Below are positions 2,380-63,752 of a stretch of 64,000 nt of DNA, piece by piece. The notes under the pieces were generated by a model. The model saw only the letters and a program-made list of their open reading frames with translations, was not told the origin of the DNA and searched no databases. This DNA comes from Malacoraja senta (Eukaryota), in contig CM075989.1 in NCBI GenBank assembly GCA_038087875.1, positions 1,054,001 to 1,118,000 of the forward strand, written 5' to 3'. The first letter of the stretch is position 1, and each line of letters starts with the position of its first letter. The translations under genes and the position numbers were made by a program.

Positions 2380-4176
2380 GGGGGAAAAGGGAAACTAGAG
2401 AGTGGAAGCACTCAGGAATCAAAGCGGTCAACTCTGTGTGGAGCCACAGGAGATGGGAAAGGTCCTCAATGAGTATCACTTCTCTGAATTTACCGAGGAT
2501 AAAGACAGAGGAACTTGGGATAGTCAATGGAAGTGTACTGAGAGCAGTCAGTGTTACGGTTGAAGAGGTGCGGAAGGTACTATCGTGTATGAAGGTAGAC
2601 AAATCTACAGGGCCTAATCAAATATATCTGAGGACGTTGTGGGAAACTAGAGAGGAAATTACAGGAGCCCTGGTTGAAATTTACGAGTCGTCTTTAAATA
2701 CAGGAGAGGTGACGGAAGACTGGAGGGTGGCAAATGTTGAGCCTCTATTCAAGAAGGGCTGCTTAGAAAATGCTGGGAACAAGAGGCTAGTGAGCTTAAC
2801 ATCTGTAGATGGAAATTTACTAAAAGGTATTCTGAGGGAAGAACATACAATCATTTAGATGGACGAGGGCTGATTAGGGATAGTATGGTTTTGTACGTGC
2901 GAGGTTGTGTCTCATAAATCTGATTGTGTTTTATGAAGAAGTGGCCAAAAAGGTAGATGAAGGCAGAGGTGTAGTTGTTGTATATCTGGACTTCAGTAAA
3001 GCATTCGCCAAGCCTCCTCATGGTTGGCTGCTCGAAGGTTCGATCACATGGGATCCAAGGAGAGATAGGTGAATGGATAGAAAATCGGCGTCATGGAAGG
3101 AAGCAGAGGGTGATGGTGGAAGGTTGTTTCTCGGACTGGAGGCCTGTGAATAGTGGTGTGCCTCAGGGTTCGGTACTGGACCCATTACTATTTGTCATCT
3201 ACATCACTAATTTGGATGAGTACATACAGGGCAAGATTAGCAGGTTTGCAGGCGATACAAAAGTGGGTGGTTTTGCAGATAGTGAAGATGGTTGTGAAAA
3301 ATTCTGGCAGGATGTTGATCAATTGGCCAAGTAGGCTGAGGAATGGTTGATGGAATTTAATGCAGAGAAATGAGAGGTGTTGCATTTTGGGAAGTCTAAC
3401 ATGGGCGGGATCTATGCAGTGAATGGTAGGGCTCCAGGGAGTGTTGTAGAGCAGAGGGATCTAGGGGTGCAGGTGCATAGTTCCCTGAAGGTGGATTGGG
3501 TGACCAAACAGGCCTTTGCCACTTTGGCCTTCATCTACCATAGTATAGAAGTTGGGAGGTTATGTTGCAGTTGTATAAGACGTTGGTGAGGCCACATTTA
3601 TATAGTTTTGTGTTCAGTTCTGGGCACCATGTTATAGGAAAGATATTGTCAAGCTTGAAAGGGTTCAGAGAAGATTCACGAGGATTTTGCCAGGACTACA
3701 AGGGTAGACCTTTTGGGAGATGTTGGGTCGGCTGGGACACTATCCCTTGAAGCAGGTGGTTGAGGGGTGATCTTATAGAGGTGTATAAGATCATGGGAGG
3801 AATTGATCGGGTAGATGCCCAGAGTAAGTTTATTCGAGGACCAGAGGACTTAGGTTTAAGGTGTAGGGGAAAATATTTTTATCAGAATCTGAGGGGTGCT
3901 CTCTCTATCCTTTTTCTTATTAAAGTTTAAAATAAGAAGTGGTACAAGAAATGTATAATTTTATGTTTGTTTGAGATCACTGCACTGTACAATACTTCTA
4001 ATTAAAAAAAAATTAAAAAATAAAAGAATCTGAGGGGTAACTTTTTCACACAAAGAGTGATGGATATATGGAACATCCCTCGATGTTTGGAGGGATATGG
4101 ACCAAATGCCGGTGTTGGCAATTTGGGCCGAAGGGCCTGTTTCCACACTGTATCACTCTCTGACTATGACTCTATG
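2380..4176 (+). mobile_element. CR1 (HER1-like) LINE, 5'-truncated, degenerate
   Basis: ORF2 fragments DWRVANVEPLFKKG, SGVPQGSVL, LYKTLVRPHL. 3' end gggccgaagggcctgtttcc plus a (ctatga)-like tail. Confidence 0.9.
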
Positions 4177-4271
4177 TGGCCAGTGGGGAGTGGGAGAGGG
4201 AGGGAACATAAAAAGTGGGAAAAAAAGACAGTAGTTTGGTCTTGTTAGAGTAAAAACAAGGCTGCCAGTAT

Positions 4272-5826
4272 TAGATTCAGATTCAGATTCAGATTCAACT
4301 TTATTGTCATTGTGCAGTGTACAGTACAGAGACAACGAAATGCAGTTAGCATCTCCCTAGAAGAGCGACATAAATATGAGCAGTAAATAAATAAATCTAA
4401 TAAATCCTGGTGGGAGGAGTGTCCGGGGGGGGGGGGGGGTGTGATTGGCAGTCACCGAGGTACAGTGTTGAGTAGTGTAACCGCCGCAGGGAAGAAGCTG
4501 TTCCTGGACCTGCTGGTCCGGCAACGGAGAGACCTGTAGCGCCTCCCGGATGGTAGGAGGGTAAACAGTCTGTGGTTGGGGTGAGAGCAGTCCTTGGCGA
4601 TGCTGAGCGCCCTTCGCAGACAACGCTTGCTTTGGACAGACTCAATGGAGGGGAGTGAGGAACCGGTGATGCGTTGGGCAATTTTCACCACCCTCTGCAG
4701 TGCTTTCCGGTCGGAGACAGAGCAGTTGCCATACCATACTGTGATGCAGTTGGTAAGGATGCTCTCGATGGTGCAGCGGTAGAAGTTCACCAGAATCCGA
4801 GGAGACAGATGGACCTTCTTTAGTCTCCTCAGGAAGAAGAGACGCTGGTGAGCCTTCTTGACCAGAGTTGAGGTATTGTTGGTCCAAGAGAGGTCATCGG
4901 AGATGTTGACCCCCAGGAACCTGAAGCTGGAAACACGTTCCACCTCCCTCCCGTTAATGTGGATGGGGGTGTGCGTGCCGCCCCTAGACTTCCTGAAGTC
5001 TACAATGAGCTCCTTGGTCTTCTTGGAGTTAAGGGCCAGGTTGTTGTCAGCGCACCATGCTGCTAGGAGCTGGACCTCCTCCCTATAGGCCGACTCATCG
5101 TTGTTGCTGATGAGGCCAATCACCGTTGTATCATCTGCATACTTGATGATGGTGTTAGTACCATGTACAGGTGTGCAGTCGTAGGTGAAGAGGGAGTAGA
5201 GGAGGGGGCTCAGCACACAGCCCTGTGGAACGCCGGTGTTCAGGGTGAGGGTTGAAGAGGTGTGCTTGTCTAACCTAACAGACTGAGGTCTGTTGGTTAG
5301 AAAGTCCAGTATCCAGTTGCAGAGGGAGGGATCGATGCCCAGGTCACCGAGTTTGGTGATCAGTTTAGAGGGTATGATGGTGTTGAATGCTGAGCTGTAA
5401 TCGATGAACAGCATTCTTACGTAAGTGTCTCTGTTGTCGAGGTGGGAGAGGGCGGAGTGAAGTGCCGTTGAGATGGCATCCTCCGTACTCCTGTTCTTGC
5501 GGTAGGCAAACTGATAGGGATCCAACGTGGGGGGTAGGCAGCCTTTGAGGTGTGCCAGGACCAGCCTCTCGAAGCACTTGGCGATGATGGGGGTAAGTGC
5601 AACTGGGCGGAAGTCGTTGAGGCTTGCCGCAGTGGAGTGTTTTGGCACCGGCACAATGGAGGTGGATTTAAGGCACGTGGGCACAACTGCTTGGGCAAGT
5701 GACAGGTTGAAGATGTCAGTCCAGACGTCTGTCAGCTGCGCAGCACAGGCCCTGAGGACGCGCCCGGGGATGCCGTCGGGGCCAGCAGCCTTACGTGCAT
5801 TAGTCCTACTCAGTGCCACGTAGGGA
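4272..5826 (-). mobile_element. Rex1/Babar retrotransposon, young, 5'-truncated
   Basis: Uninterrupted RT frame followed by a 3'UTR with gacaataaag and a (TCTGAA)n tail at 4272-4298. Confidence 0.92.
4452..5825 (-). CDS. Rex1 reverse transcriptase, C-terminal ~457 aa, no native start
   Basis: [42 protein letters not shown] and KYADDT in one frame with no stops. Confidence 0.85.
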
Positions 5827-53950: not shown

Positions 53951-55015
53951 TCAATACCATGTCTGGTGAAGGCCAATGTGCCGAAAACCACATTGACCAC
54001 CCTGTCTACCTTACAAACTATGTACCTGTACCCCTAGATCCTCTGCTCAGCAACACTCCATAAGACCCTGCTATTCACTGAAGTCCTGCCCTAGTTTGAC
54101 TTCCCAAAATGCGAAACCTCGCACGTATCCACATTAAACTCTATTAACCAATCCTCAGCCCACTTGCCCAACTGGTCAAGGACTTGCTGTAATTTTTGAA
54201 AACCATCTGTTCTATGAGTTAGTGCCATCTGCAAACTCTGCAAAATGCCTTCAACATTCTCATCCAAATCATTTATATGAACCACAAACAACGATGGGCA
54301 CGGTACCGATCCCTGAGATACACCATTAATAATCTGAGTGAAATTCCCTTGGATTAGCATCCCCAGAATTTGCCTGGATTTAACTTCAGTTACGGGGTTA
54401 TGGTTAGACTGGTCTTGACCTCACTGGAGCAGAGAAGTTTGAGGGATGACCAGATAGTTGTATATAAAATTATAAGAGGCAGAGATTGGGTAGATTGTAG
54501 GGATGTTACAAAATTTTGTGATGTTAAAAATCAAGCTGTAATTTATCCCATCAGATAAAGCATAAAAAGAAGTTTAATTTGATACCTAATTCACTTTCAT
54601 GTCTTAAGTATTAAAAAAGTTATGGTCATTTGCATACTCAGATATTAGCATCTTGTTCCCCATTGCTTTTCCATTGACTTAACACAAAAGCTGTGATCGA
54701 GGACAGTCAATTGACATGAAAGCCCATAACTTTCTTAAAAATTAAGAAAACAGAATGAATTTTTCAGTTATTATAGATTGAAGCATTCTGAAACAAATAT
54801 GATACATCTTACTTGGATGACCTGAAATTAAAGTATATAATTAGTTAATTACCTAATTAAGTAGCTAATTACAAAATTAACCGTTGCGATGGAAATAGTA
54901 ATAAACACCCAGGCTGCCTTGAAAATTAAAAAATGTGATATTGTCAAGATCAGAACTTTAATATTATTGTATTATATGCTGTAAGCATAACAGACAGGTA
55001 AAAAAATTACAATTT

Positions 55016-55394
55016 CTAGAAAAAGACCAAGTCTTCATGGAGAAGATCAGTTGCTAGTTGGTACATTGGCATATCATAATCAGTAGCATCATCATACTCC
55101 TCAGACTGCAACCAATCAGCAACTCTGTACACCTTGTTTTTCCTCAACTTTTCAATTTTGGCATTGTAAACTACAAGTTTTTGCTCTTCAAACCACGCAT
55201 GACATGCTTTTCTGCCCACTACTTTCCCATTCAGACTGACTTTTTCCAAACATGGTATACAAGTACAAGATGTGTCCAATTTTAAGATCTCTCTTAGACT
55301 CGGGCATGACAGAGAAATTCACTTCAAAGTAAGCTCTAGCTAAGCCAGGCTGGGCATTTGGATTGACAATTTTGCATTTCTTCTTCGGAGGCAT
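55016..55394 (-). pseudogene. ~125-aa transposon-borne gene with a Spin/Ssty (Spindlin-like Tudor) C-terminus, one frameshift
   Basis: ttttcag|ATG MPPKKK.., frameshift near 55240, then VVGRKACHAW..VYNAKI..YRVADW..MYQLATDLLHEDLVFF*. Domain similarity was judged by eye only. Confidence 0.5.
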
Positions 55395-55850
55395 CTGAAA
55401 AATATAAAGAAAAAAACCACTGAACAGCATTAAGTAGAAACAAGCTTTTATTTGCAGTTTTAGAAAAAAAATAGAAATGATTTTGTTCAACAAAATGCCT
55501 AACACAAGTTAAACGTTAAAACAAATAGTAAATACCCAACAAAACATTTATATTCATCAGTCATCAAATCAATTAAATTCATCTAAATTCAATTACTAGA
55601 TCTAAACATCTATCCCATTCTTAAGAAAAGGCTAAAAATATTTTTTTAAACAGCCAATGTATCCAATTAACAAACTGATCCCATTCACACTAGAATTCAC
55701 AATATAACATGATTTTTAAATCTCACTTTGTCATGAATTTCTATGCCAAATAGAAGGAATTAAATGTTTAATCCCATAAATTGTACTCTGTTGGTTCATA
55801 ACACTGCAGCAGGCAAGGGCCGTTTTACACAGAAATGTGTTCAAAAGCCA

Positions 55851-56100
55851 CAAACATCCACTCTCAAGATAATCAAAATGATAAGATCATCTAAATTATC
55901 TATATTTTGTGTAATTGTCTACCCATGATCCATAAATATCTGACTAAAAACTATGTACTGTGGATGTTTTTAGTCAGATATTTAGTATGAAAATATTGAT
56001 CATGGATAGACAATAGCACAAAATATAGATAATTGAGATTTTCTTATGATATGATTGTGCAAAAAATAATGAATTTGATTATCTTGAGAGTGGATGTTTG
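55851..56100. repeat. 250-bp imperfect foldback
   Basis: Outer arms CAAACATCCACTCTCAAGATAATCAAA and its perfect reverse complement. Inner arms AAATATCTGACTAAAAAC / GTTTTTAGTCAGATATTT. Confidence 0.9.
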
Positions 56101-56574
56101 TTCATTATGATAGAGTTCGGATTGTGGCCGCTGCCATGATTTTGCTCACACTCACAGCCGGTGGGCAAGACACGGCCGATATCGAGGCCTAAATAACATA
56201 TTTCACATCATCAGATTAAAATGAAATTACACCAAAAACTAGATAAGATGTTAAATAAAGTACATACCTTTCGTGTTGTCCTGAACTTGCGATCTGTGAT
56301 TTTGAAGGCGTTGAAGTTCAGCCCGAATTTCATCCAGCGATTGAATAGTCAAGCAACGTTTTTTTTTAAATCGTGAACGGGATGACAGGACAAAATTTCC
56401 TCATAAGCTTGTCATATGAGGAAATCCCTCCCTGACAACCAATAAAAACCTGCATTTTACTAACCCCCACACACAGCCTCTCGAGTCGCATGCACAGGCA
56501 GTGACAGATCTAGAGTGCCACTGATGGCAGGAATTTGTAACAACAATACTGGCTGTGATATCTAAATCATCATT

Positions 56575-57640
56575 ACACAAAGATGAGGTGCCGGAAGACT
56601 TGAGGGTGGCTAATGTTGTGCCTCTATTTAAAATGGGAACAAGAGACCAGTGAGCCTAACTTCTGTGGTAAGCAAGTTACCCAATAGTTTCTGAGGGATA
56701 AGATATGTGTGGTTTGGATAGACAGAGGCTGAATAGGGATAGTCCGCATGGTTGTGGATGTGGGAGATCTGAATGAGTTGTTTGAAGAAGTAACCAAAAG
56801 AGTTAATGAGACAAAGCCATAGAGATTGTCTATATAGACTTCAGCAAGACCTTGAGAAGACTGTCAAATAAACACAGTAATTAAGGCCTTGTTTGAAAGT
56901 TATGTCCGACATCTACTTGTAAATTGTCCCTCGTGTGTGTAGGATAGTGTTTGTGTGTGTGGATCGCTGGTCTGCGCAGACTTGGTGGGCCGACAGGCCT
57001 GTTTCCACGCTATATCACTAAACTAAACTAAATCCACTTGTTGATCCATCATACTTGATATAGACAATAGACAATAGGTGCAGGAGTAGGCCATTCGGCC
57101 CTTCGAGCCAGCACTGCCATTCAATGTGATCATTGCTGATCATCCACAATCAGTACCCCATTCCTGCCTTCTCTCCATATCTCTTATCTCCGCTATCCCT
57201 AAGAGCTCTATCTAACTCTGATATAGGATCAGTAGTTAGGTGATACGCAGTCTTGATATTGAGAATGGTTGGTGAGATAGAAAACTGAATTACAGGGGTA
57301 TCAGTGCTTAATATTAAGTGTGACAACATGTTTTAATGGGAAACAAATAGATTACTAGCACAGAAAATTGTGCAAATAGCAGATAATTCATTTTTAAGGA
57401 ACTGCGGACTTGAACTCCTAAGGCCCTCTGTTCATCAACATTCCTGAACACCCGAACCCATTTCCTGTACATGTCCTGCCCCTGTTTGACTTCCCAAAAT
57501 GTATCACCTACACTTGTCAAAATTCCATCTGCCAACACTCTGCTCAACTTTCCATCCGATCTATATCTACGTCGTCTATGGTAATCTTGCTCACTATCAC
57601 CAGGTTTCATGTCATCAGCAAACTTACTAATCATACCAAC
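56575..57640. mobile_element. Cluster of CR1 fragments (56575-56860 +, 57058-57220 -, 57390-57640 -) and a SINE 3' end (56920-57031 +)
   Basis: ISKFADD on the minus strand, plus tails matching other copies. Confidence 0.7.
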
Positions 57641-58645: not shown

Positions 58646-59114
58646 AGGGCCTGTCCCACGGGTATGCGACTCCATGCGGCAAGCACGACCTAACGTGGTC
58701 GCTTGAGCCGTATGGCCTCGCGGGGCCGGTCCCACTTCGATCGCCGGAGCCGTATAGAGTTGCGCGGAGCTAGTCCCGACATCGCGCGGGGCTCCGAAAA
58801 ACTGAACGTGTTCAAAAATTCCGCGCGGCAACGGCCTACCGTCCCGCAGCCGCCTCGACGCCGTACCCACCGCCTCGACGGGCGTGCGCAGCGTCTCGAA
58901 GCCGTACGCAGCGTCTTGAAGCCATACGTCACGCCCGAACTTCCCGCGTCACTCACTCGACCTCCGCGCGGCCCCCGCTTCCGGTTAGGTTGCGCTTGCT
59001 GCATGCAGCCGAATGCTGGTGGGACCAGCCCTGTACAGGGATCACTCGACCTCCGCGCGGCCCCCACTTCCAGTTAGGTCGCGCTTGCCGCATGGAGTCG
59101 CAAGGACAGGCCCG
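58646..59114. mobile_element. PIF/Harbinger-type MITE
   Basis: TIR GGGCCTGTCC..TGCGACTCCATGCGGCAAGC.CGACCTAAC. Flanks TAA / TTA. CpG-rich. Confidence 0.82.
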
Positions 59115-60963: not shown

Positions 60964-61594
60964 AGCCCCTGTCCCACTTTCACGACCTAATTGGCGACCT
61001 CTGCCAAGTTTGCCCTCGACTCATACTCGCAGCATGGTCGCCACGAGGTCGTAGGAGGTCTTCATAACTCTCCCTCATGCTCGTGAGTGGTTTCCGCGTA
61101 CTCGTGGCCTCAAGTAGGTCGTGGCGTTTTTCCAGCCTGATAAAAAATGTCCACAAGTAAAAAAAAGGTCAGCATGGAAAAAATTGATACTTTTTACTCG
61201 TAGGTAGTCGTAGATAGTCGTAGATAGTCGTAGGTAGTCGTAGGTAGTCGTAGGTAGTCGTAGGTAGTCGTAGGTAGTCGTAGGTAGTTGTAGGTCGGTA
61301 ACTGGCACGAGAAAAAAATGCAAACATGACATAATTTTATCATGTAATAATTTCCACTCGTAGCTAGTTGTAGTTGGTCTTAGGTGTGGAAGACTGAGGT
61401 CAGGGGGGGTCATAGGAAGTTGTAGACATAGTCGTAGGAGATCGTAGACATAGTCGTAGGAGGTCGTAGACATAGTCGTAGGTAGTCGTAGGAGGTCTTT
61501 TACTTTGGCGATTCAACACGACCTGGACATTTTTTTCAACTCGTCTAGGATCTTCTAAACTCGTGGATTAGGTCGTCCAAGTGGGACAGCCCCT
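60964..61594. mobile_element. PIF/Harbinger-type MITE with internal (GTCGTAGGTA)n arrays
   Basis: TIR CTGTCCCACTT..ACGACCTAAT and TAA TSD at 60961-60963 and 61595-61597. It splits a Penelope-like repeat (60932-61693). Confidence 0.85.
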
Positions 61595-62384: not shown

Positions 62385-63752
62385 TAGAGACGATATACGC
62401 GGATGTCGCCAGGACTCGAGGGGCTGAGGTATAGGGAGAGGTTGAGCAGGCTGGGACTCTAATCCTTAAAGCTCAGGAGGATGAGAGGTGATCTTATAGA
62501 AATGCATAAGATCATGAGGGCAACAGATTAGCAATGTAACAAAATTTTGAGATTTAAAAAATAAAGTCTGTAATTTATCCCATCAGATAAAGCATATAAA
62601 GAAGTTTAATTTGACACCTAATTCACTTTCATATCTTCAGTATTAAAAAGGTTATGGCCATTTTCATACTCAGAAATTAGTATTGCTTTTCCATTGACAA
62701 CACAAAAGCTGTGATCAAGGACAGCCAAAAGCCCATAACTTTCTTAAAAATTAAGAGAACTGAAATAAATGTTCAGTTATTATAGATTGAAGCATTCTGA
62801 AACAAATATGAAACAATCTTACTTAGAAGACATGAAAGTAAAGCATATAATTAGTTAGTTACCTAATTGTAGCTAATTACAAAATTCAATTACTAGATCT
62901 AAACATCTATCAATTTCTTAAGAATAGATTAACATTTTTTAATAGCCTAAGTGTCCAAATAACATTCACACAATAATTCACAATATAACATAATTTTTAA
63001 ATCTGATTGTCATGGATTTACAGGCCAAATGGAAGGAATTTAATGTTTAATATCTGTAAATTAATGGCCATTTAAATCATCTTGCAAGTGGGGATTTCTG
63101 GTACGCGATCATTTTGAACGTTGATTTGCGGTGAATTTAACCCCGTATCGGTATGAAAAATTCTGCCGTTAGTTCAAGGAAAATAATTACCGTTTCGCAT
63201 TAAAAAATGTGAATTACAGGCTTCTTAAGAAGCACTTTTATACAAAAAAATGAACTGCTTTCGTTTACCTGTCCCATGTGTGAAATCCGTCCCCGTTGTC
63301 GGCGTTGACGGCTTTCGAAGCTGATTTTAAAATGACTCCAGCGCTGAAATTGTCGATCGAATAAAAATAAAAAATACACAAAACGCCCGTAGGAACGATT
63401 TTTCAGCAAAAGGTTGCACTCCAACGAAATATAATTCAGGACAAGGTAGGAGAATCCCGCGTTTTAACCCCGCCCCCCCCTTAAAGGCGGCAAAATCGCG
63501 CACACGGCCAGTGGAAGATTTGCAGCGCCGCTGAAGGTAAGTATTGTAACATACCTAAATAGATCGGGTGCACAGAGTCTTTCACCCAGAGTTGGGGAAT
63601 TAAGAACTAGGGAACATAGGTTTAAGGTGAGATGGGAAAAGATTTAATAGGAACCTGAGGGGCAATGTTTTCACACAGAGGATGATGGGTATATGGAACG
63701 AGCTGCCAGACGAGGTAGTTGTGGCAGCTACTATAACAACATTTAAAAGACA
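62385..63752 (+). mobile_element. CR1 3' fragment hosting the hAT-like element and a Helitron
   Basis: atcatgagggcaacagat|..|aatagatcgggt rejoins to CR1 sequence. Confidence 0.8.
62529..63557. mobile_element. hAT-like non-autonomous TIR element (gene-less relative of 54498-56548)
   Basis: TAGCAATGTAACAA ... TTGTAACATACCTA, with an apparent 7-bp TSD AACAGAT/AATAGAT. Confidence 0.75.

Follow-up and report, generated by a model that had tools for sequence, protein, structure and literature searches.

The 64,000-nucleotide stretch of Malacoraja senta DNA analysed here (positions 1,054,001 to 1,118,000 of contig CM075989.1, hereafter the window) raises the question of whether a DNA transposon carries, as cargo, a small spliced gene for a chromatin reader. 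An earlier note on this DNA had described such a gene on the minus strand, inside an element with terminal inverted repeats (TIRs) and no visible transposase, with one frameshift near 55241-55245 joining two frames into a protein of ~125 aa that ends in a Spin/Ssty-like Tudor domain. The TIR element is present at this locus. It occupies positions 54498-56548 of the minus strand, its bounds and TAG..CTA ends having been set from 30 sister loci, and measures 2,051 bp; as a non-autonomous member of subfamily A, it derives by deletion from a 4.27-kb hAT-like DNA transposon; a genome search with window positions 55000-55420 returned 1,412 first-look candidates, 40 of which were scored. The ~15-bp 5' TIR (56534-56548, minus strand) is degenerate, starting with TAT here versus TAG in most sister copies, and the 3' TIR (54498-54512, minus strand) has the CTA end on the element strand. 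An exact 7-bp target duplication flanks 22 of the 25 short copies that have both ends; at the window copy no duplication was found (4 mismatches in 7). Its flanks (54400-54497 and 56549-56860) resemble what we take to be different parts of a CR1/L2-type LINE in the wrong order, which, together with the missing duplication, points to recombination between two copies or to a deletion next to the element. The window copy itself is ordinary transposon debris.

The source of this debris was found in the same genome. A search for longer proteins, run with the frame of a second subfamily of short copies (subfamily B, described below), returned four, the longest of which (P0003, 960 aa) begins like the first piece of the window and ends like the second. 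The core of P0003 has 151 matches in the genome, many of them inside 978-codon frames. The intact elements are 4.27 kb long, have imperfect TIRs of ~15 bp with TAG..CTA ends and encode a 978-aa transposase; they are the intact copies and transposase-encoding partner for which the earlier note had suggested a search. Nine full copies that were compared are 99.7-99.95% identical, and the full 977-978-aa frame is kept in 14 of 36 long copies, a sample consisting of the best-scoring matches and hence no estimate of the intact share genome-wide. A 7-bp target duplication accompanies 29 of the 30 long copies with both ends, and long copies share the loose target preference C(A/T)NNN(A/T)G. The intact partner element is young and possibly still active.

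Aligned with the intact element, the window yields two blocks, nt 494-990 (76%) and nt 3544-4268 (90%), and thus consists of the first 55 and the last 72 codons of the transposase, placed out of frame. The first 55 codons (MPPKKK..., 55230-55394, minus strand) match the start of both the 978-aa frame and P0003, and the last 72 codons with the stop (55016-55234, minus strand), corresponding to residues 907-978, constitute the Spin/Ssty-type Tudor domain. Both pieces of an element in which no transposase had been visible are therefore transposase, its N-terminus and its C-terminus. The proposed C-terminal Spin-like frame was borne out, running from 55234 to 55019 with a TAG stop at 55018-55016, in a different frame from MPPKKK. 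What had been read as a single frameshift is a deletion junction at 55230-55234 (minus strand), where nt ~990 of the intact element is joined out of frame to nt ~3544, with the loss of 2,558 bp at an imperfect 5-bp microhomology. This junction is present in all 22 subfamily-A copies tested (L017 and L020 being omitted as duplicates), 20 of them with the same 8-nt spacer, and the 2,558-nt joint is also present in a public contig. The predicted ~125-aa protein did not survive this comparison: the MPPKKK frame stops after 68 codons in the window, as it does in 12 of the 22 copies, and of the 22 copies in which the start can be read, none stays open from the ATG to the end of the domain. In L021 the junction restores the frame, but a stop follows at codon 63. 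There can be virtually no doubt that the element at 54498-56548 arose by internal deletion from a 4.27-kb cut-and-paste transposon and is non-coding. Further deletion types (L026, L028-L030) join the intron or the middle of the gene directly to the C-terminal part; as several deletions of independent origin have their end points within the Tudor-coding stretch or just ahead of it, 3' sequences required for mobility may reach into the domain.

The splice signals proposed upstream of this frame were placed as claimed: the donor AAG/GTATGT opens the intron at 56267, the acceptor ends at 55395, and the ATG at 55394 starts MPPKKK. The GT..AG intron of 873 nt (55395-56267, minus strand) lies directly before the transposase ATG. 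Upstream of it, the first exon of the transposase transcript (56268-56533, minus strand) was assigned, with a provisional 5' end, from the splice joint and the 5'-end alignment; it is likely untranslated, since upstream ATGs and frame vary across subfamilies. Two coding arrangements were considered and rejected, namely exon 2 in the +2 frame with a coding exon 1, as intact elements and P0003 begin at the ATG after the acceptor, and a coding exon 1 in frame with the post-acceptor ATG, which is not kept across subfamilies. The intron contains an inverted repeat with 57-nt arms (55878-56050, no strand assigned); the complete palindrome is a usual feature of subfamily A and is missing from the young intact element. 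The earlier note had called for reads across the splice joint, and in one of four runs a contig (run X2, presumed RNA, depth 17.8) skips exactly 55395-56267 with GT..AG ends, which supports the intron. A run X2 contig of the same depth, apparently the same contig, carries the 2,558-nt junction, so that some subfamily-A copy appears to be transcribed and spliced. The intact frame is covered by contigs in three of the four runs, level and strand not being readable from contigs, and no splice joint for the young intact element was found among the run contigs. None of the runs that contain the element is registered as RNA.

A splice joint and a subfamily-A junction apparently residing in one contig would suit a model in which an element lacking a transposase carries, as cargo, a small and separate spliced gene for a reader, and the best surviving form of this proposal lies in subfamily B (loci L025, L027, L031-L060 and L155-L184). 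There, another deletion places a second ATG in frame with the last 97 codons, creating an open 108-aa frame that holds the whole Tudor domain; the subfamily-B junction is present in contigs of three of the four runs, and the subfamily-B 5' part matches 3,423 first-look candidates in the genome. This frame looked kept (26/31 intact) because the copies had been picked by protein score. Subfamily-B copies chosen by non-coding DNA (22 of 29 used, 7 dropped for short or no cover) decay instead, with 3 of 22 intact, 13 frameshifted and 10 carrying stops, and with 17 of 19 indels breaking the frame versus 16 of 19 in the 3' control; the free-domain gene was rejected on these grounds. Purifying selection, for which a dN/dS comparison among copies had been proposed, was not seen in the domain of either subfamily: the ratio is 1.5 in subfamily B and 1.49 in subfamily A (p = 0.22 versus neutral), where private changes comprise 58 non-synonymous, 7 of them stops, against 13 synonymous, and where 8 of 21 copies are frameshifted. 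Nor do sister copies preserve the joint frame of subfamily A. The N-terminal fragment of this subfamily gives a weak hint of constraint (dN/dS 0.63, p = 0.09). Five short database matches look like C-terminal fragments. The Spindlin-like segment of the proposed accessory gene is instead the C-terminus of the 978-aa transposase that this element family encodes, an outcome that the earlier note had named as refuting its model. The cargo-gene model, which we consider very improbable, is largely refuted already.

Since the short copies retain both ends, they were presumably multiplied in trans by the intact enzyme. A second family member lies in the window at 62529-63557 (minus strand), a 1,029-bp miniature in which nt 1-675 are joined to nt 3902-4273 of the intact element, the coding part being absent and the 7-bp duplication containing one mismatch. 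A piece of the family was found in 4 of 40 evenly placed 6-kb control stretches; with such short pieces, this frequency points, as a rough figure, to maybe tens of thousands of family pieces in the genome. The 5' ends of the subfamilies are graded (L073-L088 versus L007, L032 and the miniature at 62529-63557) and their coding ends stay ~90% alike, a pattern that suggests several waves of one resident lineage with fast change in the promoter region.

Beyond this genome, 1,930 representatives match P0003 at E-values up to 0.001, and named relatives come from Hydra, a sponge, molluscs, echinoderms, a priapulid, a brachiopod, a sea spider and three teleosts. The enzyme of one locus (L073:2257-5190) is 64% identical to P0003 over the whole length and 70% identical to a sea-urchin protein over 43% of the searched region. 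Vertebrate matches to the transposase are patchy, and horizontal transfer is possible. Of 120 listed homologs, 88 have the C-terminal domain, which lies no more than 4 residues from the end in 77 of them. The other 32 score below 20 bits for the domain, and most of them end early at scattered points, which suggests truncation, though some may truly have lost the domain. The 90 relatives aligned below were chosen for reaching the C-terminus, so that the presence of the domain in 90/90 holds by construction.

Within this alignment, conservation is 99% at D429, D506 and E784 and complete (90/90) at C531 and H534 of a CxxH motif; a CxxH motif after the second Asp is common to several superfamilies, according to the available part of PMC4763223. 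The full-length model (mean pLDDT 86) has strands at 424-456 and 500-505, a helical region at 535-775, a long helix at 825-882 and a predicted helical N-terminus with a long coiled coil. The core is thus predicted to be of the RNase H type, with D429-D506-E784, CxxH and a helical insertion, and to be most like that of Hermes. In Foldseek, Hermes takes ranks 1-12 (best E 1.3e-6), with low TM-scores of 0.19-0.25 by query length, and P transposase follows at E 2e-4. The likeness to Hermes and the hAT superfamily (PDB 6dwz, 4d1q, 2bw3) includes the DDE core, the helical insertion, CxxH and short TIRs, as well as the existence of non-autonomous deletion derivatives, and the ~15-bp TIRs and 4.27-kb length fall within the 10-25 bp and 2.5-5 kb given for hAT elements in the accessible text of PMC3942097. 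The element differs from Hermes and hAT transposons in its 7-bp duplications, versus 8 bp, in an identity of 10-12%, in its predicted coiled-coil N-terminus and in its C-terminal Tudor domain. No Pfam match to a BED finger or a hAT dimerisation domain was found in four homologs or 74 aligned members, no Trp equivalent to W319 of Hermes occurs in the conserved motif 603-608, and Atlas features lean to hAT clusters at only 0.77-0.79. We call the enzyme hAT-like because the 8-bp duplication of hAT elements is lacking; hAT groups that produce duplications of 5, 6 and 7 bp have been published (PMC12730594, available part). As for P elements, which are marked by a THAP domain, a P-type core and 7-8-bp duplications, the THAP domain gave no Pfam match in the four homologs or the 74 aligned members, and P transposase ranks below Hermes in the fold search. 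Compared with the sequences of solved structures, P0003, A1 and A3 returned nothing or coiled-coil noise.

Among the described groups, hATw of Repbase/RepeatMasker, which has a 7-bp duplication, is presumably a candidate for this transposase. The resemblance, drawn by label and not by sequence, lies in the duplication length and in the relatives of this transposase in Hydra. The hATw label is used in PMC12905397 and PMC13465017, and hAT-hATw has been applied in Hydra; unlike the element described here, hATw is not mentioned with a Tudor domain in the available parts of these two papers. The hAT7 elements of rust fungi, likened by description, also have 7-bp duplications; they differ in being fungal, in clustering with Ac/Tam3 and in carrying, in many cases, a TET/JBP gene, as stated in the accessible part of PMC12730594.

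In a model with a pLDDT of 97, the 72 residues encoded by the window copy form four strands followed by a helix and by a strand that closes the barrel. Compared with 48,161 chains by VIA-align, the domain matched best the RDM15 Tudor domain (Z 7.5, rmsd 1.7, 56 aligned) and Spindlin-4 (Z 7.3, rmsd 1.7, 60 aligned), followed by the next chain at Z 6.2, where a Z of 7-8 can reflect a common arrangement. H3K4me is the mark read by both Spindlin and RDM15. Foldseek likewise placed Spindlin1 in the top two ranks (TM 0.66-0.71), at E-values that are not significant (best 0.066). The domain shares with the Spin/Ssty repeats of Spindlin-1 and -4 and with the RDM15 Tudor (4uy4, 5jsg, 7bqz, 7de9) the barrel and the closing helix and strand. 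Its profile aligned to repeats 1 and 2 of the spindlin encoded in the same genome at 13.2 and 13.6 bits, scores that none of the shuffle controls reached (500 per repeat, 453 and 489 reported; best shuffle for repeat 2, 13.2). With hhalign, comparison to individual spindlin repeats gave low probabilities (26% and 9%). In this profile alignment, for which Spindlin1 numbering was transferred to the host repeat by motif, the aromatic residues W920, Y929 and Y946 fall on F141, W151 and Y170 of Spindlin1, and D969 falls on D184. The roles of the Spindlin1 cage and of D184, as well as the reading of methyl-arginine by repeat 1, are described in the available part of PMC3967050, and a three-residue cage is described for the RDM15 Tudor in that of PMC8184781.

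The three cage positions are jointly aromatic in 87 of the 90 relatives, which come from many aquatic animals, and D969 is kept in 88. A further residue, F/Y959, is aromatic in 78 of the 90 and may be the equivalent of Y177, the fourth cage residue; an ungapped alignment places it elsewhere. In the window copy, an Asp replaces the cage Tyr at 55115-55117. The Spin/Ssty-like Tudor fold proposed in the earlier note, here with an aromatic cage, is thus supported by structure prediction and conservation. Of the profile and structure checks that had been proposed, the structural one came out in its favour, with Spindlin and RDM15 at the top ranks, and the Pfam one did not: Spin-Ssty (PF02513) gave no match to the protein pieces of the window, to the four homologs or to the 74 aligned members, and in the genome it missed every transposon copy and detected three spindlin repeats only, at two places. 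The host spindlin gene has the same scores at these two places (L089-L094; G000 C1, C1031), as a duplicate or an assembly haplotype would. Weak Pfam matches were obtained to PTM_DIR17_Tudor in four members (best E 0.008) and to Agenet in three, and Atlas placed the domain near Tudor and Spin/Ssty clusters at 0.77-0.78, values that serve as leads only. The domain differs from Spindlin in comprising one repeat versus three, in its fusion to a transposase, in an identity of 15-16%, in about nine extra residues after the third strand and in lying below PF02513 detection.

The real object behind the locus is a lineage of hAT-like transposases that have a Spin/Ssty-type domain fused to them. The suggestion in the earlier note that chromatin is read for targeting or anti-silencing may still hold, for the transposase itself. 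We lean towards the view that the window holds a deletion derivative of an element whose transposase-borne Tudor barrel binds methylated histone lysine and tethers the enzyme to chromatin. On the strength of the models and the conserved cage, the domain itself is probably a reader of a methyl mark. Carried on the long helix at 825-882, the barrel would bind methyl-lysine and hold the enzyme at marked chromatin, and would thereby bias the insertion sites or the access of the enzyme to its own ends within chromatin. That the barrel contributes to target choice is a tentative proposal, and so, at a similar level, is the broader idea of widespread animal hAT-like transposases that choose sites by chromatin mark through a built-in Spindlin-type methyl-histone reader. 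Host Spindlin and the mobile domain may share an origin.

The same anatomy would also accommodate a barrel that binds DNA or another protein, for target capture, oligomer contact or recruitment of a host factor, rather than methyl-lysine. Integrases and TnsB contain SH3/Tudor-type domains and offer a parallel; Tudor/SH3 barrels with other jobs come next in the fold list (TraI at Z 6.2, CarD at 5.5, TnsB at 4.9), and the second hairpin of the domain bears a basic patch. No clear CpG-island bias was seen in the flanks of insertions either: the median observed/expected CpG ratio is 0.50 around 30 long copies versus 0.44 in 79 control stretches (p = 0.09), and island-like flanks occur at 3 of 30 long copies versus 2 of 79 controls. 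This reading nevertheless appears unlikely, as the surface aromatic trio and D969 are conserved like catalytic residues, at the positions of the Spindlin cage, and methyl-lysine readers occupy both top places among the structural matches. That the domain reads a methyl mark to counter silencing, and not to choose targets, we judge quite unlikely, as we do its possible modes taken jointly, namely competition with host Spindlin or with Tudor proteins of the piRNA pathway, or binding of methyl-arginine. Spindlin repeat 1, the methyl-arginine reader, scores like repeat 2 and shares the Trp of the first cage position, a preprint states in its title that SPIN1 silences young transposable elements (10.64898/2026.08.20.746118), and the flank comparison revealed no clear target bias. 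However, the domain is fused to the catalytic enzyme, a fusion that a decoy would presumably not need, and its free forms are not kept by selection. We thus retain the tethering of the transposase to chromatin through a methyl-lysine-binding barrel as the preferred reading.

Reader-guided insertion is established for chromodomain retrotransposons. Like the transposase described here, the chromodomain integrases of Gypsy elements have a reader domain at the end of an integrating enzyme, as far as the available sources describe them. Gypsy-10_Ec32 has a C-terminal Tudor domain and is presented, in the accessible part of a 2025 paper, as the first reported transposable element with such a domain (PMC12477816), and hAT-chromodomain fusions occur in Ephydatia according to the available part of 10.1101/2021.11.30.470311. 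These known fusions concern retrotransposons or chromo/PHD fusions of narrow range; by contrast, the fusion reported here involves a DNA transposase in many animal phyla. No DNA transposase with a Tudor or Spindlin domain was found in the accessible parts of the literature outside Repbase Reports and the fusion table of that preprint. A DNA transposase lineage in which a Spindlin-type cage persisted from Hydra to fish would add cut-and-paste elements to the known cases of chromatin reading, and would offer a route for the exchange of reader domains between hosts and mobile elements. To this, the window contributes a genome whose intact copies are nearly identical, a splice joint, and tests by which a gene standing on its own is excluded. 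The 99.7-99.95% identity of the intact copies renders the question of chromatin guidance directly testable, and these copies, possibly still active, could yield a transposase with a built-in chromatin preference.

Two other stretches of the window look like further repeats, a GC-rich, repeat-like one with internal 59-nt copies at 58650-59110 and an array of 10-nt units at 61175-61510.
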